A stretch of 64,000 nucleotides of DNA. Source: an uncultured Candidatus Saccharibacteria bacterium (lineage in GTDB: Bacteria > Patescibacteriota > Minisyncoccia > Phycocordibacterales > UBA918). A model generated the notes under the pieces. It was not told the DNA's origin. It did not search any database and saw nothing but the letters and a program-made list of their open reading frames with translations. Below, in pieces: positions 4,601 through 53,393 of this stretch. The stretch spans positions 64,382 to 128,381 of the forward strand of contig CAYGLK010000002.1 of the NCBI GenBank assembly GCA_964350985.1. The letters run 5' to 3'. Positions within the stretch are counted from its first letter, which is position 1; each line of letters starts with the position of its first letter. The position numbers and the translations under genes were made by a program.

Positions 4601-4912
4601 TTAAAAATTAGCACTACTTGTATCAACAAAAGGATTATTTCGACCAACAGCTTCTTGGTTTAGTGGTTTAGAAAAACTACGATAAGAACTAAATAAAGGA
4701 TCGCTAAATACTCGCGTATCCAAATCAACTTGATCTAAAAGAGTACGACGCTCGATAAATATCTGAGTACTGATGAGCATGTCTTGAGTTGAAGAGACTG
4801 GATTATCAGAATTAAGTCCCGAATTCTTATTTTGCGAATACATATAATAACCAGCAAAAGCAAGGGTAATGGTTATCAGTGCGACAGTTATGTTTTTCAT
4901 TAGTGGACTCAT
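4601..4912 (-). CDS. Small single-pass membrane protein of the pilus operon (PilP-like position)
   Basis: 103 aa with an N-terminal TM helix; start overlaps the stop of the upstream gene (4909-4912). Confidence 0.4.
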   Translation of the reverse strand: MSPLMKNITVALITITLAFAGYYMYSQNKNSGLNSDNPVSSTQDMLISTQIFIERRTLLDQVDLDTRVFSDPLFSSYRSFSKPLNQEAVGRNNPFVDTSSANF

Positions 4913-5457
4913 ATAGTATTTGTATAAGAATAAGTAATGACACTAACAGCAGCTGTTATAACTCCTTCTTCATCAGCATTCAGACCCAACTTATGGACCT
5001 CAAGTGGATAATTATTCTGCTCAAGCTTACCTAACATTACTTTAACATCTTCGTAAGAACCAACTAGAGAAAGTGAGAAGGTGTGCTTGAGTAGATTTTT
5101 ATCTTTATTATTTGTCGCGCCAGCTGGTGTGCTTTTGTCGTATCTAACAGATTGAAGATAGACGTTTGATTCTTCAGCAATACTTAACAAATCTCTTGAG
5201 ACTGCCATTTGATCAACTTTTTCTGGAAGATATGTCATCAAAGCCTTAGTGTCAGAAGCTGAAATATTATTTAGTCTTTGCTTTAGACTAGCGAGTTGAG
5301 CGTTTACTTCATTTACTTTCCCCTTCTCAGTCTGATACTGCATTATTGAGTCTTGAATCACTCCTATATTTGTAAAAGTTGGATTTACGTAGAAGAAAAG
5401 GATACCTACAGCTAGGATAGTCATTACTACTTGCGTGAAAAATGAATTAGCTATCAT
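4909..5457 (-). CDS. pilO: PilO-like pilus assembly protein
   Basis: 182 aa; N-terminal TM helix then a coiled-coil; operon position between pilN and pilB. Confidence 0.5.
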   Translation of the reverse strand: MIANSFFTQVVMTILAVGILFFYVNPTFTNIGVIQDSIMQYQTEKGKVNEVNAQLASLKQRLNNISASDTKALMTYLPEKVDQMAVSRDLLSIAEESNVYLQSVRYDKSTPAGATNNKDKNLLKHTFSLSLVGSYEDVKVMLGKLEQNNYPLEVHKLGLNADEEGVITAAVSVITYSYTNTI

Positions 5458-8061: not shown

Positions 8062-8147
8062 TGGAGAAGTGTCAGAGTGGTCTATCGTGCTTCCTTGCTA
8101 AGGAAGTGGGGTTCACGCCCCCGGAGGTTCGAATCCTCTCTTCTCCG
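8062..8147 (+). tRNA. tRNA-Ser, anticodon GCU (type II tRNA with long variable arm). Non-canonical 18-nt anticodon arm; no encoded CCA
   Basis: Acceptor GGAGAAG/CTTCTCC, T-arm GGAGG-TTCGAAT-CCTCT, variable arm GGGG-TTCACG-CCCC. Anticodon arm cttcc-ttgctaaa-ggaag has one extra nucleotide (8-nt loop, or 6-bp stem plus 6-nt loop). Confidence 0.75.
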
Positions 8148-8157
8148 CTTTTTGAAA

Positions 8158-8184
8158 ATACCGCCTCTGGGCGGTTATTTTCTT
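8158..8184 (+). terminator. Rho-independent terminator after tRNA-Ser (ccgcc-tctg-ggcgg plus T-run)
   Basis: Hairpin 8161-8174 followed by ttattttctt. Confidence 0.6.
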
Positions 8185-8445
8185 AAGCGGAGAAGAAGAA
8201 AAGTGCTAAGGCACTTTTCGTGAGGATTCGAAGACCTTGCCTACTATTTTGTGACGCAAGGAAACAAAATAGTGACAAGGTGTACTGCCTATGTAATGGG
8301 AGAAATTCCTCTCTTCTCGTAACAGTCTGGGAGACTGTTACGTAGGATTCGAAAAGCTTTTGAGGTAGATTCGACCAGAGGGAGAATATATCCAAAAGGT
8401 ATACTGGTTGTGTAACAACCGAAATTCCTCTCTTCTCCGCGAATA
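8185..8445. repeat. tRNA-linked repeat array A: inverted copy of the tRNA-Ser 3' tail, then two degenerate tRNA-3'-half-like units
   Basis: aagcggagaagaag at 8185-8198 is the reverse complement of ctcttctccgctt (8137-8150). Two units each contain a hairpin, a T-loop-like GGATTCGAA and an acceptor-like end gaaattcctctcttctc(cg). Confidence 0.5.
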
Positions 8446-16482: not shown

Positions 16483-16634
16483 AATATATTGGAGGATTGG
16501 CTATGAAATCTAATTTGTTTTAGATTTCATCCGATCGTTCCCCAGAACGAATAATCGATGCTTTAGCGAGATTATAGGGAGGGTAACGAAGCCAATCCTA
16601 TCTAAGATCAGAGTGAATATATTGGAGGATTGGC
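16483..16634. repeat. 23-nt direct duplication (gtgaatatattggaggattggct) of the tRNA 5' end plus leader, with an inverted 10-nt copy (agccaatcct) in between
   Basis: Copies at 16483-16505 and 16612-16634; the inverted fragment sits around 16580. Confidence 0.55.
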
Positions 16635-16710
16635 TGAGTGGTTGAAAGCAGCAGTTTACTAAACTGCCGAACCTTAACAGGTTCCGAGAGTTCGAATCTC
16701 TCATCCTCCG
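16624..16710 (+). tRNA. Type II tRNA (Ser-class architecture) with apparent anticodon ACU (loop TTACTAA); unusual A34; no encoded CCA
   Basis: Acceptor GGAGGAT/ATCCTCC, D-loop AGTGGTTGAA, anticodon stem GCAGT/ACTGC, variable arm GAACCT-TAAC-AGGTTC, T-arm GAGAG-TTCGAAT-CTCTC. Confidence 0.65.
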
Positions 16711-16717
16711 CGAGTAC

Positions 16718-16748
16718 AAAAATAAGCACCTTTAGGTGCTTATTTTTG
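16718..16748 (+). terminator. Rho-independent terminator after the tRNA (aataagcacc-ttta-ggtgcttatt plus T-run)
   Basis: Perfect 10-bp stem with flanking A- and T-runs. Confidence 0.6.
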
Positions 16749-16750
16749 TT

Positions 16751-17150
16751 CGCGGAGGATGAAGAAAGCAAATAGTTTTGCTTTCTGTAGAGATTCGAAA
16801 GCCGCAGGCATGTCTGCAAGACAGCCGAGGCGGGGTCGAGAGTCCTTACTAGAATTAGAGCAAAGCGAATAATTATAGTTAGTAACTCGTGACCGAATTT
16901 CTATCTCTATACAACCCATTTAGGGTTGTTTTTATTTGTGCGAGCGAGAGGATGAGTAAGACGCCTGCGCGTCTTACGTAGAGATTCGAAAAGCGCAGCG
17001 ATGCCGGAGGCGAGCGAGTTGGGGTCGAGAACATTTAGTAGATTTGGAGTCGTAGACGAACAAATATACTTAATGATTCGTGACCGAATCTCCAACTCCA
17101 TACAACCCATTTAGGGTTGTTTTTATTTGTGCGAGCGGAGGATGAGAAAT
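16751..17150. repeat. tRNA-linked repeat array B: inverted copy of the tRNA 3' tail, then two tandem units of about 195 bp, each ending in the terminator-like module atacaacccatttagggttgtttttatttgtgcgagcg
   Basis: cgcggaggatga is the reverse complement of tcatcctccgcg (16701-16712). Units span about 16751-16946 and 16947-17137. Each has a hairpin, T-loop-like gtagagattcgaaagc, a GC-rich core and ccgaat + acceptor-like tail. Confidence 0.6.
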
Positions 17151-23444: not shown

Positions 23445-23496
23445 AAAAATTATTTAATGTCATATAGTATACTCCACTTTCTTTAAATTTAAATAT

Positions 23497-23800
23497 AAAA
23501 AAGCCGGAGCCAGTAGTGTAACTACCGACTCTGGCCTGTGCGGCGCAAGTGTTAACAACGAAACTTGCGCGCCATCCTACCTCGACACGATCCAGCCCGG
23601 ATCGTGTCGGTAGGCACCTGTGTCCGGCGCAACGGAGGCAGCTCCGTGCAACGGCAGACACCAATCGGTGTGGGCGTGTCACGGATTCGGTAGGCATCCG
23701 CCGACCGACATCCCCGTACCGTAACAAGGACCTTTCCGACCAAGACTCTTGGCATAACACCTCTCCCCGAGGCAAGTCACCACTTTAGTGACTCTATTAC
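23497..23800. ncRNA. GC-rich, hairpin-dense non-coding island; candidate structured RNA (SRP-RNA-like GUCCGG...GGAGGCAGC motif), strand undetermined
   Basis: About 60% GC versus AT-rich flanks. Multiple perfect hairpins (gcgcaagt..acttgcgc; cgacacgatcc..ggatcgtgtcg; cggaggcagctccg). Short ORFs on both strands. Confidence 0.3.
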
Positions 23801-23884
23801 TATACCATGTTTACGGCATAAAGTCAATATATAAATCGTCTTTTAAATAAGGCTTTACTAGCACTTCTCTGTTACTATTTAAGG

Positions 23885-34300: not shown

Positions 34301-35386
34301 ATCTAGAGCCTGTAGCGGTACCATTGGCCTATTAAAGGTAAAGGTCAAAATAGTTTCCTCGCTGACATTTCCAACATTTAGATTTGGTTCAAACAAATCA
34401 ATCTTGGGACGCTGCACAGCCCGGAAGCGCTTTTCACTAATTGAACCGTCAGAATTTTCGTAAGATAAAGTATAAAAATTATTCTCTTCTAGCGGTTCAC
34501 TTAATTTAAAAACAATATAATCAGGTGATGTTGTCCTTCCCCACCAAGTACTAATACTTGGATCAAAATCAACATTAAATCGAGACAAGAATTTGCCTTC
34601 ACCTTCAGGTAAACGAACAACAATTGGACCATCAAGAGGAACTGTATCGCGGATTAATTGATAATCGTTACGTAACTCGTCAGGAGTTAGTGTGACTGGC
34701 CGAGTGATAATCCAAGTAAAGTAAGCTAGTGCGCCAAGTAGTAGTATGAATAACGCTATATAATGATTTTGTCTAAACTTTTTACTTAGACTGAAATTCC
34801 TCCACCACCATCTGATAGGTAGCAGGAGAAAATGCAGTACAATCTTTCCCTTCGCAAACAGAACATTAAGAAAGACTAAGTTTATCTTTGGAACTGAGAC
34901 CTCTTCGGTAGATCCTTTTGTTAGTTCATTAAACTGGATATTACGACTATATAAACCGTGTACTATTAAATAATAGATTCCTATACTCAAGAAAAATGGT
35001 AATAAGTAGAGTACGTACGAGAAGATAAGGGTTAAGGAAAAGCCTTTCGCTATACTTTTAGAAACAACATCATAGATAAACAATAAACTTCCAGCCAAGG
35101 CCAGAAGACAAACAAGCGCCTGAGCGATATAGAGACCTAGTCGAATACGACGATATTTACCTATTTTTACTGATCCTTTAATGACAAACAATTGATATAA
35201 CGGAGTCAATGAATATTTACTAGACAGAATAATAATAGCAATCCAATAGATGGCTGGTATAAGGGAGCTACCAGTGTAGCTAAAAACTCTTTCAATGGTT
35301 AATGAACTATTAACCAAGGTCATCAACACCAAAGCTGAACCGACAAGTACTGCCGGATGAGACCAAGTAAAGAGGAGGCGAAACAT
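28298..35386 (-). CDS. Giant (2362 aa) membrane-anchored alpha-2-macroglobulin-family protein (bacterial A2M/YfhM-like)
   Basis: N-terminal TM segments; thioester-type motif YPYGCSEQ; size and beta-rich repeat organisation consistent with the A2M family. Confidence 0.7.
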   Translation of the reverse strand: MFRLLFTWSHPAVLVGSALVLMTLVNSSLTIERVFSYTGSSLIPAIYWIAIIILSSKYSLTPLYQLFVIKGSVKIGKYRRIRLGLYIAQALVCLLALAGSLLFIYDVVSKSIAKGFSLTLIFSYVLYLLPFFLSIGIYYLIVHGLYSRNIQFNELTKGSTEEVSVPKINLVFLNVLFAKGKIVLHFLLLPIRWWWRNFSLSKKFRQNHYIALFILLLGALAYFTWIITRPVTLTPDELRNDYQLIRDTVPLDGPIVVRLPEGEGKFLSRFNVDFDPSISTWWGRTTSPDYIVFKLSEPLEENNFYTLSYENSDGSISEKRFRAVQRPKIDLFEPNLNVGNVSEETILTFTFNRPMVPLQALDRDYEIDVPITITPPTEGSFVWASERQLEFIPAKRLTRSSDYTVTVGEGFYSVDGLQVPKEEYNFTVNRLRTTEYSRGNLRAQDPLRFSFNQPVSIEDMEIAVVNKDNNSIPVTLEYDSSLTYNPDLKQKENVIDRSTVIVRPVENEARWFFGESISYTVTNIRPTEGTLTSPDIRATSTVANLLMRSDVYSQRSREVRSDYFDPQGVIRLYFSQPVDKDKLTISGVGRSVATVKYQSLCEAYDPVCNRYNDSVVEVSFVGEQLELAKDYTLTISDFFDLDGVRIADVKEEVKFKTVGPLVITEVIPTAGSEDRSLTVCSSNPIIEYRSLNYKDLFQTEQPIYSFSRSEISSFVTPYETLLPLQSQPLCAGSFKTTVQFSLLPETDYVIKLTPEDVFGNQLSTETSFRTPERVKPVVTEIKKVAWMKNLHQRYEVTTPDRTAFTYSFGNIDYIDLTICKLSPEEMLRIGGELGRGQEAPSNCLERQDRRIDLSNPSGTSYVQLDLQQYFNNVKGHYVITVTHPELKYSDYQFKKNTERQYFDHMYTSVTNLSLVEKRTNQFDLNSEEVTDRKTGIVRDGAGSGLYWVSNLSTLDPVEGAQISVYRDTAPGNKVLIERAATVVTNEDGVGLVKTVADAVGAYVISGDDSAMVSSWADTISSSGAVHEIEQMYLYTDRPIYRPGHEVFIKGLHRIGYDAKYEIFADRIVTVTVSGPGGQIFSTSTSLSEYGTVAAELVLPENAPLGSYSIHAQTWSGYNVGYSYFSVEEYTPSPFEVKATSQRDEYVAGETLDVIVSADYFFGAPVAEGTVSYAITTQNYYFDKGNDRRFRYGSFDEYCSQCGYYDQFVARGEVPLENGVANILTELDFNKLFEDEENSNTSKIFVINATVKDASGRSVSTQASFIVHRAMLYGAVRTLDHFSAVGESNIIEIRTVDTEGVGRPGKVNMEIVREDWKQFERREVDGSFYVHSEEIEVPVFDAEVTTNQNGLLELPFTFDKAGRYILRLSGVDERGNPYLASASQYVYGKGAVPVRRNNDRTLDIAVDEVDLAVGQTSKLIIKSPYQKAKALVTVERGSVMEYEVIDVDANFFDYDFVAKKDHSPNVVVTVTLISSEPSVKYGEVYYQIDHDVYNLDINVISNKKAYLPGEEVTLQVETKNNDGLPVPAEVSIAAVDLSVLALKGNPKRDPLAFFYNRFSHDVITSSNLKFVHEEIEIPTGTKGGDGGVDLAKRERGVFKDTAFWAADVVTDSNGRATVKFTLPDNLTRWQVETIGITKDTKVGVNYMEFEEKKDLIMTPLYPRFLVPGDKLSLGAEVLNRTKVSQTITFTIESDSLVLVGKPQTVTIPAEGSKRLFFDVEAPRSILGGSHEVLFVAGNSLFEDSVRKQIPVVENTLYETVFRGAQTSGELIEEKIFTPTEIHQELGGVTVKAFGTVGAYLEDSLNYMAAYPYGCSEQLASKLATLATISHLTSLEGLGSEYRLETVEFNNNTYSVNEALQQGLKQIYESQARDGGFGYYRGLRSDVSLSLHVLSVLLSLEKYGIEIDEDVLNQAKKFAGTVASRRFNEDSIVDSSWKMDYLTTRLVTLKEIDPRPRAVDVGVSELRKSITRKAIRNFSTHSLVYAALLSDELWFWDRYTVWNEIERRLRENNDGIYISRSSVSFAKSFYETDMANTAILLRAITTQERETDLAPKIVDWLLSERQFDGAWGTTNTTHVVVQTLTDYIEWKGESGARTVITALLDGEIIATHNTELQPKLEGLSKLLTFDELGLGEEHLFTFTQVEADARQNNTIYYDIEMKYYLDREVLPGRDEGVQVTREFFALDDIDKQNPLTEATVGDTVLGRITFSIGSPMRMMAIEDKIPAGFEIINFDYSTENKIVLDAAIKSAAKVQAENKFDVAAFMSTGEFAALETVDVYKDEKEALKPNRRQYTRAFRGGTEELHDDRIFVFQESLDPGTYVYEYYLRTLVPGQYQHLPVWVGELYNPEFFGRTASGEFTVVK

Positions 35387-35636
35387 AACAAAACAATAGC
35401 ATGATGTATGGCTAAATCAAACAAAATAGTGGTTAATTTTTTATTAAAGTGACTCGAAGCGGAGTAAAGAAATTATCACAATGATTTTACTCTAGATGGT
35501 TACGGGAAATATTCCCTCTTTGAGTAAAGGACCTTCATATAAAACAGCTCTAAGAACGCCAGGAAATGAGCGAGGCTCATTTCCTGACTTTCTTCATATC
35601 CCAAAATACCCTTATTTTACAAGCACTTTCTAGTGC

Positions 35637-35664
35637 TTGACATTATTTTTATATATGCTATATT
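35637..35664 (+). promoter_or_regulatory. Near-consensus sigma70 promoter TTGACA-16 nt-TATATT
   Basis: Read directly from the sequence at 35637-35642 and 35659-35664. Confidence 0.4.
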
Positions 35665-35733
35665 AGATGGGTCACGACTTTTCGTGGCCATGCCTATAGC
35701 AGGCATGTTTCGCTCTTCTAAAAGGATCTCACC

Positions 35734-35862
35734 ATGAGCTACCCCCATGTGCATGACCGGATTGACGAGGATACGAATCCCAGCGAAGATCAGAATGCGA
35801 ATCCCGGCGCCGGCGGCGATCTGCCCGACACCCCCTCACCCGCGGTGACCAGCGACAGCTGA
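35734..35862 (+). CDS. GC-rich 42-aa acidic/Pro-rich small ORF (MSYPHVHDRIDEDTNPSEDQNANPGAGGDLPDTPSPAVTSDS), speculative
   Basis: AAGGA 8 nt upstream of the ATG; lies inside a GC-rich island downstream of a strong promoter. Confidence 0.25.
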   Translation: MSYPHVHDRIDEDTNPSEDQNANPGAGGDLPDTPSPAVTSDS

Positions 35863-36383
35863 GCAACCTGCGCGGCGGGCCCTGCGACGCACGCGAAACG
35901 TCGCTAGGGCCTGCGAGTAATACGCTGCGGACATGTCGAGAGGGGTTTAGGTAGAATCAATTACATCCCCGAACGTCCGCGTCGCAGCCGGAAGCCGAGT
36001 ATGATGGGGCCTTTTTGCCCCGCTTCAGTGCTCCGGCGAAACTGGGCTGTCTCTCTGAGATCGGTCCAAAAGCCCCGATACAGTTAAACGTATTCGGGTT
36101 TGCGCACCATGCGCACAACTGTCGGTCGCGGTACGATACCGCGACCGACTCAACCAAAGGAACGAGCATGCCCTACCATGCCCGAGGTCCCCCGACAAAA
36201 TAGACGAAATAGTGGGGCGCATTGCGCGCCCCACCGATGCTTCCTTCACTGGGGGCATTTTTGTATATTAAATTTAAATTTTCTACCCAAATAAATATCT
36301 ATAAAAGAACCTTCCGGCCCAAGCTCCGGCTTGTGATGTTTTTCATATTTAAATTTTCAACTACTTTTTAAATTTTCTGCGTA

Positions 36384-36412
36384 TTGACTTTGTTTCAGCA
36401 ACCACATAATAT
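36384..36412 (+). promoter_or_regulatory. Sigma70-like promoter TTGACT-17 nt-TAATAT
   Basis: 36384-36389 and 36407-36412; precedes GAGGG-7nt-ATG of a 26-codon GC-rich ORF (36454-36534, MKTQISQFHSPPFASTALRVDQHPKG). Confidence 0.35.
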
Positions 36413-36723
36413 TAAAAGTGCTTGCAAACCGCAGACATTCGCGAGGGTGCGTCATGAAGACCCAGATCTCCCAGTTCCATTCCCCGCCGTTCGCTTCCAC
36501 CGCGCTCCGCGTCGATCAGCACCCGAAAGGCTGACCGACACCCCGTACACTGGGTCACGACTGGCCCCCAGACAGGTCATCGCGGGTGAACCTCTCACCC
36601 GCGATGAACCAAGCCTCGAGCCCCAAAGCTCGCGGTTTTTCTTTTGTCTAAATTTTCACCTTCTTTTTAAAATAATTTTTCTGTGCTAGATTATTAGTCG
36701 ACCAGTACATAAGGATCATGCCT

Positions 36724-36861
36724 ATGAAAAATCCGTGTCTGAGCCTGAATCTCGGACACAAGCATTTACCGCGCAGGCCAGGGGATAGTCGTGAGACTTC
36801 CCCCTGGCCATTTGTATTTAATAACCAGCTTTATTGTCCCCTTTCTCCAAATACGGTATAG
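36724..36861 (+). CDS. 45-aa small ORF (MKNPCLSLNLGHKHLPRRPGDSRETSPWPFVFNNQLYCPLSPNTV), speculative
   Basis: AAGGAT 7 nt upstream; contains a GC hairpin ggccagggg..ccccctggcc; stop lies 16 nt before the tRNA. Confidence 0.2.
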   Translation: MKNPCLSLNLGHKHLPRRPGDSRETSPWPFVFNNQLYCPLSPNTV

Positions 36862-36876
36862 TTTCCAAGCCGACAT

Positions 36877-36949
36877 CCGCCTGTAGCTCAGTTGGTAGAG
36901 CGCAGAGCTTATACCTCTGTGGTCCTTGGTTCGAGTCCAAGCGGGCGGA
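36877..36949 (+). tRNA. tRNA with anticodon UAU (loop CTTATAC), putatively tRNA-Ile(UAU); no encoded CCA
   Basis: Acceptor CCGCCTG/CGGGCGG (one G-U), TAGCTCAGTTGGTAGAGC D-arm, anticodon stem CAGAG/CTCTG, T-arm CTTGG-TTCGAGT-CCAAG, discriminator A. Confidence 0.7.
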
Positions 36950-36955
36950 CTGGCG

Positions 36956-37021
36956 TAAAATAAAACTGACAATTGTTAACAATTGTCAGTTTTATTTTAG
37001 TTAGCAAACTTTTTTGCTAAC
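36956..37021 (+). terminator. Double terminator: 44-nt perfect palindrome taaaataaaactgacaattgttaacaattgtcagttttatttta, then hairpin gttagcaaa-ctttt-ttgctaac
   Basis: Perfect palindromes read directly. Confidence 0.6.
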
Positions 37022-37165
37022 GGCGCCAGTCCGAGCCGCAGCGCTGCGAACTAGTGAGCCGCGAGGCGGGATCGCGAACACTTAGTATATTTGGAGTGGT
37101 CGAACAAATATACTTAGTGATTCGTGATGACTGAATGTTTTAAATTTATATTCCTACTGGTCCTT
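37022..37165. repeat. tRNA-linked repeat C: inverted copy of the tRNA 3' trailer (cgccagtccg), then one unit homologous to array B; contains a perfect 15-bp AT-rich hairpin
   Basis: Hairpin is cacttagtatatttg / caaatatacttagtg. About 70 nt align with 17040-17110 of array B. Followed by the terminator aaaaagaacaacg-tcta-acgttgttcttttt (37170-37200). Confidence 0.55.
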
Positions 37166-37251
37166 GGCTAAAAAGAACAACGTCTAACGTTGTTCTTTTT
37201 ATTTTGGAAAAACTCAAATCCCCTTATCTCCTTAAGCTATAATAAATAAAC

Positions 37252-45071: not shown

Positions 45072-45464
45072 GGGGATGCTAGGCATCGACGGTTAGCCTA
45101 CCCATTATGTGCAGTGTCGAAATTGGAATCAATTCGTTAAAAGGTTCCATCTGTATTTGCAAACAAGCCAATACCAAGTCCTTACGCTAACGCGTTTGGA
45201 TTCGCTCCCGCTCTAGCGTAACCATTCGCCTAGACCCGGATCGATGCGATCGTACTAAACGCCTCATACAGTACGATTCGTAGAATAGCCACGAGGCTGT
45301 GGACTTAAGTGTCGTTGTCGCTTAAGTTCAAGATTGTCACAACTCGAGTAATTGTTGTTTTGTCTCTTCTATAGACAGTTACTTTAAATCAAAGGAGAAA
45401 CTACACACTGTAGATTCATGATGAGTACCTGATTCGGACGGGGTTTCGATTACCCCCATCTCCA
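45072..45464 (+). ncRNA. ssrA: tmRNA (ssrA), one-piece; tag ORF 45159-45221 encodes ANKPIPSPYANAFGFAPALA
   Basis: 5' end GGGGATGCTAGGCATCGACGG (tmRNA-like start); 3' tRNA-like domain GGGGT-TTCGATT-ACCCC plus acceptor CATCTCC pairing with GGGGATG. GCA resume codon in ...tttGCAAAC..., tag ends ALA-TAA. Adjacent to smpB. Confidence 0.7.
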
Positions 45465-45469
45465 CTCGC

Positions 45470-45602: not shown

Positions 45603-45983
45603 ATGGGATCTAACGCACGTGCTGACATTTGGGTCGGCATCAAGTTTGATGGCTTCTTCGATAGGAGCGAGTTCGTTGATTTTCTCGACACCACGCAGAT
45701 GTCGGAGGATGAACGTTATGAAATCCTGAACGGGCGCCCTGGCGCTCAAGGAGCAGGAACAATGGTGGGAGAGGATGTCTACGACACCTTCACCTGCTGT
45801 GACGACATGAAGGGCTTCGGCGTCAAGTTGCTCTGGCACGACTGGGACTTCGAGCCGAAAGTGCTCGACTTCAGCCAGCTAGCAAAACAAACGGAAGCGC
45901 TCAAAAAGCGAGTTTCTCAGGTCTTCCAGAAATGGGGTATCCAGGAAGAACCGCATGCGTATCTCCACACCGACTATCGCTGA
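45603..45983 (+). CDS. GC-rich hypothetical protein (126 aa from the RBS-supported start), unknown function, likely foreign origin
   Basis: Strong SD GGAGGTGA; codon usage markedly GC-rich versus neighbours; followed by two-tier hairpin plus cttttctttttt (45993-46043). Confidence 0.5.
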   Translation: MGSNARADIWVGIKFDGFFDRSEFVDFLDTTQMSEDERYEILNGRPGAQGAGTMVGEDVYDTFTCCDDMKGFGVKLLWHDWDFEPKVLDFSQLAKQTEALKKRVSQVFQKWGIQEEPHAYLHTDYR

Positions 45984-48226: not shown

Positions 48227-49432
48227 TTACAGCTGACCTTTGTCGCGGGAACCGATACCGCCGCCCCGTCCAGACACACCCGCGGTATCGAGTCGATCCC
48301 ACGGAATCATCGCACCGAGCTGATAGAGAGCCACGATGTACTGCAACTCAGCCTGCCCGGCGGTGACGTTCTGGAACTCGATGATGCCGAGCGCAAATTG
48401 CTTCAGGTTCCGCTCGAGTCGCGGATAGTCAGAAGACACCGCCACTCCCAGCGTGCGCAACATCTGCTCGCGATTGGCCGCGCCCACCTGAGCGGGGAGC
48501 GACGGGTTCTCGAGCACCTTGCGGATCTGCTGGGCGTCATACGCCAGCGCCATAGCGACCGGCATTCCGGTACCAGCGAACACGTAGTTGATGTCATTCA
48601 CAACACCATCAGCCGCATCACGCAGTACCTCAGCGGGAGGCGGTTGCATCATCCCCGGAGGAACGATCCCGCCAGCCCCGCCAGCCAAAGCACTCAGCAT
48701 GCCGACCATGGCGGCCGGATTGCTCATCCCCTGTTGCCAGGCGTCGACCCACTGCTTCAGCTGCTGCTGATACGAGTTCAGCGAGCCCCAGAGACGATTG
48801 TTGATTCGGCCCAAGAGCGCGGCCTTGCGCGCCTGGGTGGCGAAGCGACCGTCGACGCCGGGCATGGCCGCAAAAATCTCGGCGTAGCTCCGGCGGGTCA
48901 GAAGGGCCTGCAACTGGTAGTAGTCGTCACCGACAGGTTCTTGGAGCGATTCCGCCTGACGCTCCATCGCCAGACCGATCTTTTCGGGAAGGTCGAAGAG
49001 GCCAAGACGAGCCGCCAGAGCAGCGCTCACGGTACCGGTGACAGTCTCCTTGTTGAACCTGAGAACGCCACCAACCTTGAGAGCATTGAGCCAGGCTTCG
49101 TCCGAAGGGACGGCCGGCAAGACATCGAAGGTCGCCGCACTCATCGCCGGTACCGCGGTTTCGCTAGCGGCAGGTGCCGGAGCGATTTCACGGAGGCCAG
49201 CAATGGCCTTGGCCAACTTCGCCTTGGGAGCGCCGTCGCCCACCGCCGCACCGATATCGGTGTCGGGAGTGAACTCGCGATCCTTGAGGAGACTGATTGC
49301 TTCATCGCCCGGTTCACCGACCAAGCCCTTCAGCGCAGCGGTGATTTCCTCGACGCTCTTTCCGAGCGCAGTGGCAAACGGGGTGATGTAAGCGACCCAA
49401 CCTTCAGGAAGGGTGATGGTTGTATCATTCAT
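48227..49432 (-). CDS. GC-rich hypothetical protein (401 aa), last gene of the GC-rich operon; no recognisable motif
   Basis: Long ORF with high-GC codon bias; Ala/Gly/Gln-rich low-complexity stretches. Confidence 0.55.
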   Translation of the reverse strand: MNDTTITLPEGWVAYITPFATALGKSVEEITAALKGLVGEPGDEAISLLKDREFTPDTDIGAAVGDGAPKAKLAKAIAGLREIAPAPAASETAVPAMSAATFDVLPAVPSDEAWLNALKVGGVLRFNKETVTGTVSAALAARLGLFDLPEKIGLAMERQAESLQEPVGDDYYQLQALLTRRSYAEIFAAMPGVDGRFATQARKAALLGRINNRLWGSLNSYQQQLKQWVDAWQQGMSNPAAMVGMLSALAGGAGGIVPPGMMQPPPAEVLRDAADGVVNDINYVFAGTGMPVAMALAYDAQQIRKVLENPSLPAQVGAANREQMLRTLGVAVSSDYPRLERNLKQFALGIIEFQNVTAGQAELQYIVALYQLGAMIPWDRLDTAGVSGRGGGIGSRDKGQL

Positions 49433-49476
49433 GACTTCTCTCCACGTAGATGCGGGTTTTGCCCGCGGGTTGTATT

Positions 49477-50865
49477 TCAGAAAATTGCTTTGTCGAGTTC
49501 GGTGGGACCGAACGCGAGCATGCGTAGTGGAATGCCGAGGTTTTCGGCGACCAGCTCCTTGGCTAGTGCAATGGCACCATCCTTAGAGCCACCGGGAATC
49601 ATGTGGCGAGTAATGACCGGCTTTGCGCTCATGAGCGCTTTACCAAGTCCTTCCTGATACCACAGTTGTTTGTCGTCTTCTCCTCTTCTAACGATTATTT
49701 CACCTTCCTTGGTGAAATAGTTTTGATCGAGCTCACCTTCGTAACGCTGGCAAACATCCCAAGCGCCGAAACGCAAAGGGGTGTCAAACCAAGTCATTGC
49801 CACGGCGTCAAAAGTGCCGCTGCCTCCACTCACCTCCTTGGCGTAGCGGAGCGCAACAAAGTCTAGCGGGCCAACACGCACCTTACCACGATAGCGATCG
49901 GGCTTGCCGACCTCTTCGGGAAGTAGCGTTTCGGCCATCTTCGCATCGTCAACCACAAGCGGCCCGGCCCCGTGTCTGATTTGATACGAGCGTGTCACAC
50001 CGATTTTTGCGACGTCACCATCCCATCCGTTCTCGCGGAGCAGACTCCAAGAGGTTATCTCAGGGAGTGTCCGGAGGCGGGTGGTATGAGGATGAAAGCC
50101 GTTAAAGCGATCGGTGAGAATACCGTGTGAACTTTCAACCACAATCACTCCGTCGCGAGATAGAACCTCACGACGCAAATAGTCATGATCGACAATGCGC
50201 ACACTCCTCCCAAATTCTTCAAACACATCGCCGACCCAATCAAGGAATCCGTCAGTGCGAATGAGATCAATCTGCTTCTGCACCTCTTCAACGTCGCCTG
50301 CCAGATAGCCTGCTTCCAAGACAAGTGCCAGGTCGCAGAGCTTTTGTGCATGTGCTGCACGAAGCTTTTCTCTGATACCTGGTTGCTTGAGATCCCTTGC
50401 TCTAATCGCCAGTTCCGGAAAGAGTTCGGCGTCGAGGAATGCTTCCCCAACACCAACACCTACCGTCCCTTTTGGGTTTTCCTTGCGAGCAAGTTCCTTC
50501 AGTCGTGACGCTATGCCATGAAAAGGCGTCGTCACGAGGGCATTCTCATCGACAGCGATAATAGACAACGGGTCGTAAATTCCATGTTCGTAGCGGAGCT
50601 CCTTAGCCTCGTTGAGGAAGCCAAGGGGCGAAACCACAAACCGGTCAGTCACGAACGTGCGGGCACCATTGAAGGTGCCACACCCGAACTGACTGAAGGC
50701 AAACTGTTCACCACGGGAGGTTGTTACGCCGTGATGTCCTTGTGCTCCCCCAACCTTGATGACGGTATGGGGTTTTCGGAGTGAGCACAACTTGTGCACC
50801 ACACCCCCTTTCCCCCCGTCACCACCACCAAGGTCGGTGACAGTATAGGCTTTCTTTTCGACCAT
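49477..50865 (-). CDS. Divergent adenylosuccinate synthetase (PurA/PurZ family) homologue
   Basis: 462 aa; GGGDGGKGG aligns with the GDEGKGK P-loop, GGAQGHHG with GGHNAGH, VVSP with VLSP, GTVGVGVGEAF with GTTGRGIGPAY, VESSHGILTD with FEGAQGTLLD, RHGAGP with RVGAGP. Several substrate-contact positions are substituted. Confidence 0.6.
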   Translation of the reverse strand: MVEKKAYTVTDLGGGDGGKGGVVHKLCSLRKPHTVIKVGGAQGHHGVTTSRGEQFAFSQFGCGTFNGARTFVTDRFVVSPLGFLNEAKELRYEHGIYDPLSIIAVDENALVTTPFHGIASRLKELARKENPKGTVGVGVGEAFLDAELFPELAIRARDLKQPGIREKLRAAHAQKLCDLALVLEAGYLAGDVEEVQKQIDLIRTDGFLDWVGDVFEEFGRSVRIVDHDYLRREVLSRDGVIVVESSHGILTDRFNGFHPHTTRLRTLPEITSWSLLRENGWDGDVAKIGVTRSYQIRHGAGPLVVDDAKMAETLLPEEVGKPDRYRGKVRVGPLDFVALRYAKEVSGGSGTFDAVAMTWFDTPLRFGAWDVCQRYEGELDQNYFTKEGEIIVRRGEDDKQLWYQEGLGKALMSAKPVITRHMIPGGSKDGAIALAKELVAENLGIPLRMLAFGPTELDKAIF

Positions 50866-50931
50866 AAAACCTCCCAGTCATTGTGACCGCAAGTGTGCAG
50901 GACTCTCGTCCTGCACACCTTTACGGCAAGT

Positions 50932-52050
50932 TCAGAGCCACGTTCCGCCAGCGGCGGCTTCGGGCTCACTTCCTTCTTCAGCGACCGGCCACAGGTCGTG
51001 CTTGTTGGCAAACACCGCTCCCTTCCCGGGAATCTTGTCGAAATTGGGGAAGAGCGTCTGTGCGCCAAGCGGGATGTGCGCCACTGCGCGCTGAATTTCA
51101 CGCGCCACAGTTGCACTACACCCAGTTTCCGTGAGGAAACCCACGACCGACTGCAGGTCGAGTACACCTTCCGTCAGACCGATGATGGCCGCTTCGACGT
51201 AAGCGATGTGCTTGGTGGTATCAATCACCACCACGTGTTCATCCCCGTAGTACCGCCGCCAGTAGTTGACACTGTCACGGCCCACCATGATGGCAAACGC
51301 ATGAGCCCGCTTCTTGAGCACGCTCATGATCTCATCAGTTCCAGACGGAAAATCCCGCTGGTCCATCGGAAAGCCATTGTCCGAGCACCGCTCGAACACC
51401 GTCTCGCCGAACACCCGGATGAGATGCCGCTTGTCGACACGTCCATGACTCGTGGCGTCCGTCGTCATGAAGTGGTACGGCAGCAGACCGTAGCGGTTGA
51501 TGAAGGGGTCGGTGAGGAACGCTGCCCCGAAGAGACCGTATTCCGGATCTTCTGGCTCGTCGCCACCCTTGCCTTCAGCAATCATGAGCACGAGTTGCTC
51601 AGCGATACGGACATCCATCTCCGCCTGCGTTCGGGCGAGGACGAACTTGTCCTCCACGTCACCGAACATGGCATTCATGATCTGCACATCGTACCGTCCG
51701 AGGAGCGGGTTTGCACCCGCCGTCAGGAGGTCGTACTGCTTCGGCAGCGAGTCGAAGATCAGGCGAATGTTGCTGGCCATGGAACCCGTCGTATCGAACA
51801 AGTTCTCGACGAGCATCGGTACCCCGACGCCGAGCCGGAACTTGCCGTTCACGAGTTCATCATAGCGAGGCCACGACTTCCGTACCAGGTCATACCCAGC
51901 CGGATCGACGAGGGCATGAAGTGCCCCCGTCGCTTCGTAGTGTTGCCGACCTGCGTGTGAGGCATCGCCACCTGCGGCAGCGACCTTGGCGGATTCTCCG
52001 GCGTAGGCCGAACGATCAAAGTGACGAAAGCTCTTGTCTGCACGACTCAT
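50932..52050 (-). CDS. vWA-like (MIDAS-type) domain protein, tentative
   Basis: 372 aa; beta-strand MLVENLF followed by DTTGSM (compare DxSGSM); overlaps the upstream gene by 4 bp (ATGA). Confidence 0.4.
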   Translation of the reverse strand: MSRADKSFRHFDRSAYAGESAKVAAAGGDASHAGRQHYEATGALHALVDPAGYDLVRKSWPRYDELVNGKFRLGVGVPMLVENLFDTTGSMASNIRLIFDSLPKQYDLLTAGANPLLGRYDVQIMNAMFGDVEDKFVLARTQAEMDVRIAEQLVLMIAEGKGGDEPEDPEYGLFGAAFLTDPFINRYGLLPYHFMTTDATSHGRVDKRHLIRVFGETVFERCSDNGFPMDQRDFPSGTDEIMSVLKKRAHAFAIMVGRDSVNYWRRYYGDEHVVVIDTTKHIAYVEAAIIGLTEGVLDLQSVVGFLTETGCSATVAREIQRAVAHIPLGAQTLFPNFDKIPGKGAVFANKHDLWPVAEEGSEPEAAAGGTWL

Positions 52051-52889
52051 GGTCTATCTCCTGTGGAAAGTGCGAGTGTTGTAAACGGATGAAAATTCCG
52101 TCCCCAGAGTGACTCTACCGTGTGGTAGAAAGCGGAATGAGCCTCACGAGCATCGCAAAATGCTCCGCGCGTAAGACTCATCAGAACTGCCTCATAGGCA
52201 GAATCATAGTCGGGGTCATCTTTCGGAAGCGTCATTGTTGCCAAGTCGCCTCCAAGTAACCACCAAACATTTCGTGCAGCCAGAGCGACTTCTTCGCGCC
52301 GGCTTTTGGCATCGAACCCTCTTTTCGCTTGCGACCAATCAAGCAGAGTCACCAGATGGTGCTCTTTCTCAATCAGGGTCGTTTCGTGATCAGCGAGGCT
52401 GCCAAAACCGACATCGCAGCTATGGACGAAGTCAAGGAACTTGAGGGTCTTCCCCAAGATCCAAACACTGGTCTTCATATCGACCCTGGACCGATCACGT
52501 TCACGAATGAAAGAGATAGGAACAAGGTCGATCAAACGGTCAACTGCTTGGAACCCAAGAACAACGACCCGGCGGCTTCCTTGATCTGGTACAACAAACG
52601 TTTCGACCACCTGCGGAAAGCAGATGGTGTAATTCAGCCTGTTGTGTCCCGGGAATTTCCGCTGATACTCAGCTTCGAGCCCCGCCGCGGCCTCGGTCAA
52701 CTCGCCGAGAAGAAAAGCTTCGCGGTCGAGAATCCCATTTTGGGCGGTCGAGACACCAATCTTCAGCATCAATTCGGAGTCGGGAGATTCTGGATTTTGC
52801 ACCCGAAAGTAGCGAAATCTGTCATTCTCTCCGACCAGGTTTTGTACCTGGTACGTACCTTTACGGCCACAAACATGTATGGAGGACAT
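52047..52889 (-). CDS. Hypothetical protein with weak protein-kinase/APH-like fold signals, first gene of the GC-rich operon
   Basis: 280 aa; HSCDVGFGSL...LLDWSQA resembles the catalytic-loop and DFG/IDW regions of APH/CotS-type kinases. Low confidence. Confidence 0.35.
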   Translation of the reverse strand: MSSIHVCGRKGTYQVQNLVGENDRFRYFRVQNPESPDSELMLKIGVSTAQNGILDREAFLLGELTEAAAGLEAEYQRKFPGHNRLNYTICFPQVVETFVVPDQGSRRVVVLGFQAVDRLIDLVPISFIRERDRSRVDMKTSVWILGKTLKFLDFVHSCDVGFGSLADHETTLIEKEHHLVTLLDWSQAKRGFDAKSRREEVALAARNVWWLLGGDLATMTLPKDDPDYDSAYEAVLMSLTRGAFCDAREAHSAFYHTVESLWGRNFHPFTTLALSTGDRP

Positions 52890-53393
52890 TGTGTTACCTC
52901 TCTTTCTTCAGTTGGTTTCTGTTGATCAGCTGTATGTCAAATAGCTTTTCCAACCCTTGCAGGCTAGCCACAATTTGGAATACGCAATTCAAACACTAAT
53001 TTGATTATCTGTCAATAATTTATGGGTTAGATTCAATGTTGGATTACAACACTGGTTAACCCATTAAATACTGACAAATACCCTTCCAGCCCATCAACAG
53101 CCACCGTAGTAATTCGATTCCGAACTTCTTTAGTTGGTTTTTAATATCCAGAGAGTTGCTGTTATATTTATATTCTTTTGTCAAAGAACCGGACACGTAC
53201 CTAAGATGGAACTACTTCATCCGCTAACGGTTTCAAACCTTCTTAGGTACTTTGTGTGTATCTGACACTAAGATACACCTGTTATGTGTTAGTGTCAACG
53301 CTACACTAAATACGATACAATTATTAATTAGCGTCAAACCTACACACCTGACAGACAGCAAAAGAGCGGCCTTACGGCCGCTCTTCCCTCCTC

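Follow-up and report, generated by a model that had tools for sequence, protein, structure and literature searches.

Putative small-ORF RNAs in a variable GC-rich island upstream of tRNA-Ile(UAU) in a Candidatus Saccharibacteria genome, one ending in an arrest-peptide-like RGPP mini-ORF

Introduction

Several bacterial small RNAs bear a small open reading frame (ORF) or have a dual function, among them RNAIII/hld, SgrS/SgrT and SR1/SR1P. Here we analyse a GC-rich intergenic island (positions 35387 to 36876) in a window of 64,000 nucleotides (nt) from an uncultured Candidatus Saccharibacteria bacterium (contig CAYGLK010000002.1, positions 64,382 to 128,381). All positions are those of this window, unless they follow the handle of a related metagenome locus (L036 and the like). 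The island contains three predicted units which, like the RNAs just named, are short and autonomous, with their own promoter and terminator and with a 26-45-codon ORF that makes up a minority of a structured RNA. Unlike them, they have neither sequence or structural homology nor a known target, and the island has a foreign composition and occupies a strain-variable slot.

The first of these units ends in a predicted 11-codon mini-ORF, MPYHARGPPTK, which recalls a second group of described systems. According to Fujiwara et al. (EMBO J 2025, PMC12992588), RAPP and RGPP arrest translation robustly, and EF-P does not relieve this arrest. RGPP is the strongest and most context-independent core, with the most stable arrest across varied N-terminal contexts, and it is also the most avoided tetrapeptide across bacterial phyla (PMC12992588). 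The motifs are also reported to be overrepresented towards the C-terminus of small proteins whose genes precede regulated ones (PMC12992588). Like the arrest peptides of this class (ApdA, ApdP and ApcA, and SecM with RAGP), the mini-ORF is short, is led by a Shine-Dalgarno (SD) sequence and has Arg-Gly-Pro-Pro two residues from its C-terminus. In the one homologue found, which belongs to a distant genome, RGPP and the preceding residues (YHA) are unchanged. The mini-ORF differs from the known members in having only 11 codons, with 5 residues before RGPP, while the known members have tens to hundreds of residues, most with localisation signals. It also lies at the 3' end of a small predicted transcript, directly before a hairpin and terminator, whereas the known ones precede the cistron under control (for example sec, yidC, or TonB-related or copper-related genes).

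Three further kinds of system share some of the properties of the island. Like tRNA-linked genomic islands and integrative elements, it borders a tRNA gene, has an atypical composition and varies between relatives, and relatives have duplicated halves of tRNA-Ile around the gene; unlike them, it is on the 5' side of the tRNA, is very small (1.2 kb), has neither an integrase nor a direct repeat of the tRNA in the window, and carries as cargo tiny genes with host-type promoters. Like integron cassette arrays, it is made of tandem, short, variable and mostly orphan units with recurring junctions (TAAATTTTC and T-run motifs), but IntI, attI and attC-type palindromes are missing, and each unit has its own promoter and terminator while integron cassettes are promoterless. 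The junction repeats are AT-rich direct repeats rather than attC-like inverted ones, and no integrase is adjacent. Finally, like the GC-rich structured RNAs found between the genes of AT-rich genomes (RNase P, signal recognition particle (SRP), 6S, tmRNA, riboswitches, GOLLD, ROOL, OLE), the island is a long intergenic stretch rich in GC with significant predicted folding; it differs from these in that no covariance model matches it, its GC content is well above that of the true RNAs of the genome and part of it has a coding-type bias in GC content at third codon positions (GC3).

Results

A conserved frame around a non-conserved insert

The interpretation that we favour, and to which we would give an even chance of being right, is that the island is a variable cluster of three small-ORF RNAs, independently transcribed, in a lineage-specific slot immediately upstream of tRNA-Ile(UAU). 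In unit 1, a conserved frame with an arrest-peptide-like mini-ORF at its end would surround an exchangeable foreign insert. The observations on which this interpretation is built are the composition of the island, its promoter and terminator motifs, the codon-position bias, the homologous frame and the differences between relatives at this locus. The coordinates of the features are given in Table 1.

The 5' side of the frame (35606-35667) was homologous to the promoter of the first unit in L036, L043 and L070-72, with a local alignment score of 47 for the unit 1 promoter compared with a maximum of 36 in shuffles. By inspection, the first SD and start codon of unit 1 also aligned with L036. At the 3' end, positions 36140-36275 aligned with L036:4788-4925 (alignment A3) over the SD, the mini-ORF, the hairpin, the terminator and the T-rich tail. 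The arms of the hairpin (GTGGGGCGC/GCGCCCCAC) were the same in both, and positions 36215-36233 of the window read GGGGCGC-ATTGC-GCGCCCC. The stretch from the first start codon to the second SD comprises about 400 nt of GC-rich sequence in the window versus about 135 nt in L036. The two are unrelated, and the hairpin-rich spacer of the window is not conserved in L036. The 3' module of L036 was missed by BLAST and was found by eye and with a fuzzy pattern search; nhmmer, run over all related loci, matched the module to L036 only. A comparison of the island with all fetched loci and with the rest of the window by tblastx and word-7 blastn gave nothing except the promoter match to L043.

The RGPP mini-ORF

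The SD of the mini-ORF is placed 5 nt before the ATG, and RGPP ends 2 residues ahead of the stop codon, so that an R-[AG]-P-P core stands near the C-terminus of a small predicted ORF, as in the RAPP/RGPP class. The counterpart in L036 is VRYHARGPPNCS, and the codons of YHARGPP differed between the two sequences by three synonymous third-position changes and zero non-synonymous ones. When 703 kb of related DNA was scanned for SD-led ORFs of 6-100 codons that contain RGPP, only those of the window and L036 emerged, and an exact-pattern scan of viral contigs for the mini-ORF module gave 0 matches. The earlier note on this stretch, made from the sequence alone, had proposed leader-peptide or attenuator units as one reading. 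The leader-peptide part gains from a feature that it had not listed, namely this SD-led RGPP mini-ORF directly before a hairpin and terminator, without being fully right.

Several points weigh against the interpretation given above. The conservation of the mini-ORF comes down to one second sequence, and the restriction of three synonymous differences to third positions corresponds to roughly p=0.04. No downstream cistron depends on a stall in the mini-ORF: it is followed by the hairpin, the terminator and then an independent promoter, and unit 1 contains no co-oriented gene after it. If the ribosome stalls when Pro9 is in the A site, it would be expected to cover the mRNA to about 36205-36207, and this predicted edge falls just short of the hairpin, which starts at 36211. 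A small stem can form over the start codon of the mini-ORF both in the window (GCATG/CATGC) and in L036 (CGTGC/GCACG), and selection may therefore have acted at the level of the RNA. As to the longer ORFs, the GC3 signal described below is statistically weak at 42 and 26 codons; these two ORFs have no homologue among 5.8 billion proteins, and no gene calls exist for them in the public collection; and the ORFs of the window match neither small-protein family of the relatives.

Composition of the island and its promoter-to-terminator units

The GC-rich blocks alternating with AT-rich cassettes that the earlier note had described were borne out by the GC content of successive intervals. The genome has about 39-41% GC, and the island consists of blocks of 60-74% GC that alternate with AT-rich promoter and terminator segments. 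GC per 100 nt peaked at 0.74 (35800-35899) and 0.67 (36500-36599), as compared with 0.33-0.38 in the AT-rich junctions (36250-36449 and 36600-36749) and 0.30-0.43 in the flanking genes. The identity of the flanks was also confirmed, by Pfam domains and tRNA prediction respectively: the upstream gene encodes a true A2M-family protein (Pfam MG2, A2M_BRD, A2M and bMG10), and the downstream one is tRNA-Ile(UAU) (36877-36950).

A consensus scan recovered both sigma70 promoters quoted in the note, TTGACA-16-TATATT at 35637-35664, which agrees with the consensus at 11/12 positions and has a TG extension, and TTGACT-17-TAATAT at 36384-36412. The region contained 7 promoter-like sites (2.8 +/- 1.7 in shuffles) and 10 terminator-like sites (2.3 +/- 1.6 in shuffles); the sole minus-strand promoter-like site faces the A2M gene. 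The repeated AT-rich motif that had been claimed is present in the form of TAAATTTTC repeats at about 36275, 36352, 36369, 36652 and 36673 (families D1, D3 and D5), and the junction between units 1 and 2 that holds the first three may be a collapsed unit. The hairpins had all been called perfect. This was correct for those at 36121-36149 and 36577-36607 (13-nt arms each, 100% complementary) and incorrect for the first one (35670-35689), which contains one G-T wobble; the hairpin at 36776-36809 has 15-nt arms. We rejected the idea that unit 2 is a frameshifted paralogue of unit 1: the motifs that they share, CTGMCCGACACCCC and TCACCCGCGRTGA, are too short, and the codon-phase GC favours the 26-codon frame.

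Table 1. Features of the island and its borders, in order along the window
Feature	Coordinates	Strand	Remarks
Divergent region upstream of the A2M gene	35387-35605	not set	GC 0.30-0.40, outside the GC-rich units
Hairpin with 20-bp arms (inverted repeat I3)	35552-35594		In the A2M upstream region
Unit 1 promoter: -35 TTGACA at 35637, 16-nt spacer, TG-extended -10 TATATT ending at 35664	35606-35667	+	
Two stem-loops of the 5' untranslated region (35670-35689 and 35689-35707)	35670-35707	+	Both in minimum-free-energy and centroid folds
Small ORF 1, 42 codons (MSYPHVHDRIDEDTNPSEDQNANPGAGGDLPDTPSPAVTSDS), SD AAAGGA at 35721-35726	35734-35862	+	
Hairpin-rich, GC-rich non-coding spacer	35863-36150	+	Includes perfect 13-bp hairpin 36121-36149
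SD AAAGGAA (36156-36162) and 11-codon mini-ORF MPYHARGPPTK (36168-36203)	36156-36203	+	Homologous in L036
Conserved GC hairpin (36211-36235), then intrinsic terminator (36236-36259) and T run	36211-36265	+	
AT-rich junction with TAAATTTTC repeats and small terminator-like hairpin (36320-36333)	36266-36383	+	From repeat and terminator lists
Unit 2: promoter 36384-36412, perfect 13-bp hairpin 36577-36607, terminator 36617-36632 and T run	36384-36645	+	
Unit 2 ORF, 26 codons (MKTQISQFHSPPFASTALRVDQHPKG), SD GAGG	36454-36534	+	
Unit 3: weak promoter TTGTCT-18-TAAAAT (36644-36673) or TG-extended TAGATT (36684-36692)	36644-36822	+	
Unit 3 RNA, about 120 nt: hairpins 36735-36759 and 36776-36809, then ATTTGTATTT		+	
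tRNA promoter TTGTCC-17-TATAGT (36834-36862) and tRNA-Ile(UAU) (36877-36950)	36834-36950	+	Conserved locus anchor

Searches for known RNAs and proteins

At gathering thresholds, cmscan found in the whole window only the tmRNA (45072-45467) and three tRNAs, and nothing in the island. At E<=10, over 35300-37200 and on both strands, the best non-tRNA scores in the island were 12-26 bits, as compared with gathering scores of 45-128. The region was thus assigned to a known RNA family at neither setting, and the RNase P, SRP or 6S RNA that the earlier note had thought might be here had no credible match inside 35400-36870. That the island is a divergent essential RNA of this kind, or else an assembly chimera, can be considered effectively excluded. 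An essential RNA has in its favour only that structured RNAs are generally expected to stand out as GC islands from an AT-rich genome; apart from the negative searches, the lengths and the architecture, with three promoter-terminator units and SD-led ORFs, do not fit. Against a chimera, the Logan assembly of run ERR3534985, which is independent as an assembly but was built from the same reads, matched 35387-36985 base for base, and analogous GC blocks are found at this locus in assemblies from other samples. Both Logan contigs end within a 44-nt perfect palindrome (36956-36999), which accounts for the interruption.

The peptide searches were equally negative. None of eight ORF translations was in the protein collection (exact look-up), the concatenated plus-strand peptides had no match at E<=10 among the 5.8 billion proteins (phmmer), and Pfam gave nothing for the peptides of the window or the small proteins of the relatives. 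There was no nucleotide match in plasmids and phages (blastn in 'distant' mode). The window peptides did not resemble type I toxins either, being acidic or polar and without a hydrophobic stretch. A literature search on GC-rich small genes in Patescibacteria found nothing relevant.

Coding signals and predicted folding

The three SD-led short ORFs listed in the earlier note were present, at 35734-35862 (42 aa), 36454-36534 (26 aa) and 36724 or 36718-36861 (45 or 47 aa). When we determined their codon-position bias, the GC1/GC2/GC3 values were 0.65/0.51/0.72 for the 42-codon ORF and 0.56/0.48/0.81 for the 26-codon one, while the GC3 of native genes is 0.28-0.39. The GC3 excess of these two stops at their stop codons. 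The 45/47-codon ORF (0.50/0.46/0.46) had no coding signature, and it crosses the terminal hairpin of unit 3 into the tRNA promoter; most likely, unit 3 is a short non-coding hairpin RNA or a terminator that insulates the tRNA promoter. The spacer of unit 1 showed no 3-nt GC periodicity (codon-phase spread <=0.13 over 35850-36030).

Predicted folding was significant throughout, with z values relative to dinucleotide shuffles of -7.0 for unit 1, -5.6 for 35863-36160, -3.9 for unit 2 and -5.0 for unit 3. Because 35863-36160 also folded on the minus strand (-4.0), it fits a string of palindromic hairpins rather than a single specific fold. Such strong z values, together with the lack of codon periodicity in 35863-36150 and unit 3, speak for another explanation, in which the units are structured small RNAs and code for nothing. 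The ORFs and mini-ORF would then be incidental, and the GC richness would reflect selection for stable helices in an AT-rich genome. The same genome also holds an unannotated, strongly covarying RNA that adjoins the island (see below) and another GC-rich promoter-to-terminator unit at about 23490-23830 on the minus strand. We nevertheless consider this explanation unlikely for the island as a whole. The GC3 excess is limited to SD-led ORFs and ends at stop codons, the codons of YHARGPP differ at synonymous sites only, and the folding of the spacer on both strands is expected of palindromes and not of one RNA fold. The GC content of 60-74% is far above that of the true RNAs of the genome (45% for the tmRNA and 59% for the tRNA). 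In relatives, moreover, the slot holds ORFs of 78-101 aa with a GC3 of 0.8-0.9, of which the 97-aa one of L070 and L071 has gained both synonymous and non-synonymous changes. Taken by themselves, 35863-36150 and unit 3 may be structured RNAs, which would agree with the small structured RNAs that the earlier note offered as one reading.

The same locus in relatives

The 500-aa YknX/HlyD-like protein encoded next to the island is most similar, among named organisms, to homologues from Candidatus Kaiserbacteria and Pacebacteria (50-57% identity), which places the genome in the Patescibacteria. Even the closest sequences are only 63-64% identical. The gene order yknX-ftsX-ABC-ftsH-smpB-tmRNA is conserved, with tRNA-Ile(UAU) upstream of yknX in L015, L016 and L018/19. 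With a pattern derived from the tRNA, we recovered 48 further metagenome loci that share it. Many had GC-rich blocks 100-600 nt upstream of tRNA-Ile: in 8 of 36 non-redundant loci of at least 4 kb, a 100-nt interval within 1 kb upstream of the tRNA was at least 0.20 above the background GC of the locus itself, and such intervals were 6 times commoner there than elsewhere in the loci (7.2% versus 1.2%). At the spot equivalent to 35387-35605, relatives have the terminator hairpin of recG, directly before the conserved unit 1 promoter. An Rfam scan of the related loci found only tRNAs, tmRNAs and one LOOT RNA (RF03000, 70 bits, L015:14170-14289, minus strand).

In the relatives, the GC-rich blocks are SD-led small genes; each has a promoter and a terminator of its own, and GC3 is 0.77-0.91. 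One family of 78-101 aa (A2; L021, L022, L027, L030, L052, L054 and L070) has hydrophobic N-terminal segments that by inspection resemble signal peptides, counts only nine members among 5.8 billion proteins and is syntenic (recG, 63-aa ORF, 97-aa ORF, tRNA-Ile, yknX-like). In a six-frame hmmsearch with its profile, the best score of the window was E=0.72, compared with 1e-23 to 1e-34 for members. The profile of a second family, the first-unit small ORF of L070, L022, L052 and L034 with its 'GPP' motif, matched no window segment at E<=20, and a likeness of unit 2 (MKTQ...HSPP) to this family that we had noticed by eye is therefore unsupported.

The earlier note had also suggested small secreted or toxin peptides acquired from a GC-rich donor. 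The GC3 of 0.72 and 0.81 in two ORFs and the GC3-rich small genes at the locus in relatives agree with foreign small peptides; the want of a signal or hydrophobic segment, of a homologue and of a donor, as well as the absence of a coding signal in the 45-codon ORF, does not. Taken together, the three readings offered in that note were partly supported, none being fully right and two being partly so.

The comparison of L070 with L071 was informative. Their 97-aa genes differed by 32 substitutions in 294 nt, mostly transitions (12 synonymous and 15 non-synonymous codons), while the flanks were 99-100% identical; a second patch of 79-89% identity was present at 4801-5200, inside the yknX-like gene. 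This pattern in the sequences indicates a recombination mosaic around the locus. A diversity-generating retroelement was rejected as the source of the differences, since the substitutions were mostly transitions and showed no adenine bias. Judged from these alignments, the slot upstream of tRNA-Ile is a variable site housing small GC3-rich genes in part of the clade.

A further explanation is that the blocks were acquired horizontally from a GC-rich donor, are decaying in an intergenic site that tolerates them and have no present function, their promoters and SDs being fortuitous or relics. The foreign composition and the lack of homologues agree with this, as do the other GC-rich islands of the window, including one of 4.5 kb with a phage-type PurZ-like gene. 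The blocks are also absent from most relatives, and units have been gained or lost among close ones, L036 having unit 1 and L033 a shorter, different segment. We hold it to be quite improbable all the same, because each block is framed by a near-consensus promoter, a well-spaced SD and an intrinsic terminator, motifs that exceed shuffles 2.5- to 4-fold, and because a distant relative shares the promoter and 3' module of unit 1. Furthermore, an integrase, an att repeat and a tRNA fragment are all absent from the flanks of the island, and the GC-rich small genes of relatives are highly diverged yet syntenic, which points to long residence rather than fresh junk.

Some of the related loci showed other features in this position. 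A second conserved mini-ORF module, with an AAGGAG SD and the pattern ATGATCTTTCGA (peptide MIFR...), was found at L015:3031-3190 and L016:202-385 and in L034 and L022. It is followed by about 140 nt of structured GC-rich RNA and then a terminator, and it occupies the position of the RGPP module of the window, from which it is absent. Partial copies of tRNA-Ile occurred before or after the gene at L015:3240-3500 and L016:770-890 and in L034, L052, L022 and L054. One kind of copy is a 5' half of tRNA-Ile that breaks off in the anticodon loop and is separated from the full tRNA by a conserved insert of about 90 nt; others are 3' halves after the gene. This suggests repeated site-specific recombination at the tRNA. 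For the window itself, a tRNA-targeting integrative element or att duplication was rejected: no tRNA-Ile fragment was found elsewhere in it (<=3 mismatches; word-7 blastn), and the flanking genes are A2M and yknX-like.

Relation to the downstream tRNA

The units are co-oriented with the tRNA, the mini-ORF followed by hairpin and terminator has the layout of a classical attenuator, and many genomes keep the locus in synteny with the tRNA. It could therefore be proposed that the whole island is a leader or attenuator for tRNA-Ile(UAU) or for the yknX-ftsX-ABC operon. This is very improbable. The tRNA has its own conserved promoter (promoter and tRNA were 82-91% identical in L015, L016 and L019) and a terminator-like hairpin ahead of it in all relatives examined; between the mini-ORF and the tRNA lie three terminators and two additional promoters; the ORFs contain no AUA codons; and in most relatives the tRNA occurs without any such island.

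Directly downstream of tRNA-Ile, just outside the island and unrelated to its units, we observed an unannotated structured element of about 120 nt (37013-37136). Further copies lie downstream of tRNA-Ser (16788-16904 and 16979-17094), and others in L002:2-124 (minus strand), L016:8128-8228, L024 (3 tandem copies), L028, L047, L052 and L055 (2), among others; not counting L002, related loci have no fewer than 20 more copies adjacent to tRNA or tmRNA genes, some of them in tandem. In an alignment of 14 sequences, 97.6% of the cells could pair, and 21 of 28 pairs had compensatory changes, compared with 29-45% and 5-7 pairs in slid controls. An invariant G-U pair points to the tRNA-sense strand. 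The element had no Rfam match and no match in viral contigs (exact-pattern scans). Each copy lies between an intact tRNA or tmRNA gene and a duplicated piece of the same gene (36950-37175, 8149-8440 and 16712-17150; L055, L052 and L016). The piece starts from the anticodon loop for tRNA-Ile and consists of the acceptor-strand and T-arm halves for tRNA-Ser and tmRNA, with breakpoints in the anticodon loop or T loop. This layout resembles attL/attR and suggests an integrated miniature element that spans about 250 nt and lacks an integrase. The element is the kind of small structured RNA that had been sought in the island, and it is well supported and linked to tRNA and tmRNA genes.

Other features of the window

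An island of 4.5 kb (48300-52900; 52-65% GC), a few kb downstream of the tmRNA, contains four co-oriented genes with a GC3 of 0.53-0.71. One of them matches adenylosuccinate synthetases of the PurZ type (2-aminoadenine pathway; PHROG 1211, E=5e-40; Pfam Adenylsucc_synt, 1e-29), and this island is probably a phage-derived insertion. Directly after the tmRNA, an isolated 126-codon gene (45603-45983; GC 0.53, GC3 0.65) with its own promoter and terminator had no Pfam or PHROG match. The orphan GC-rich unit on the minus strand (23490-23830) has a promoter (TTGACT-17-TATAGT), a 5' hairpin, an SD and a terminator followed by TTTTTATATTTAAATTT. It contains a 67-codon Arg/Cys-rich ORF (23552-23755; GC 0.60) with no GC3 excess and gave no Rfam match at E<=1 besides a 12-bit GOLLD fragment. 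Lastly, a tRNA-Ser with the unusual anticodon ACU was predicted at 16624-16711 (ARAGORN and Rfam alignment), besides tRNA-Ser(GCU) at 8063-8148.

Discussion

We infer from the organisation of the island the following scheme for the expression, translation, stalling and any biological role of its units. Stable small RNAs would be made from the sigma-70-type promoters. Unit 1 (about 35668-36265) would be framed on its 5' side by the promoter, the first SD and the start codon, and on its 3' side by the second SD, the 11-codon MPYHARGPPTK, the GC hairpin and the intrinsic terminator. Between these, the non-conserved and compositionally foreign insert of about 400 nt would consist of the 42-codon ORF, which is probably translated, and then of about 290 nt of hairpin-rich non-coding RNA. 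Unit 2 would be a second small mRNA, with its 26-codon ORF and a structured 3' tail. Ribosomes on the mini-ORF would stall at RGPP, a few nucleotides ahead of the hairpin and terminator, and the stall might determine how stable the transcript is or how often transcription reads through into the units downstream; we put forward such a role of the mini-ORF in transcript stability or terminator read-through purely as a hypothesis. The internal GC-rich segments would turn over by recombination, because the small genes in the slot differ between related strains while the flanks are almost identical.

A more speculative extension, to which we attach a slim chance, is that unit 1 represents an undescribed expression cassette of the Candidate Phyla Radiation (CPR), in which conserved ends, the promoter and start codon on one side and the RGPP mini-ORF, hairpin and terminator on the other, bracket an exchangeable foreign insert. 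A constitutive, EF-P-refractory stall at the 3' end would then act in cis, for example by protecting the 3' end from decay or by gating read-through, and the inserts, small peptides or structured RNA, would be swapped between strains as determinants of interactions with hosts or phages.

With RGPP at the end of a 9-residue nascent chain, the mini-ORF would be among the shortest natural arrest candidates of the RAPP class. It would also be the first such candidate noted in this phylum, at a non-canonical, 3'-terminal position. The negative result of the RNA family searches indicates that GC islands in AT-rich genomes need not be structured RNAs. Since CPR bacteria (Patescibacteria) have tiny genomes with few intergenic regions, a gene-poor island of 1.5 kb with three promoters is unusual. 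If expressed, its units would supply further micro-proteins or RNAs, variable between strains, in organisms for which almost no host-interaction factors are known.

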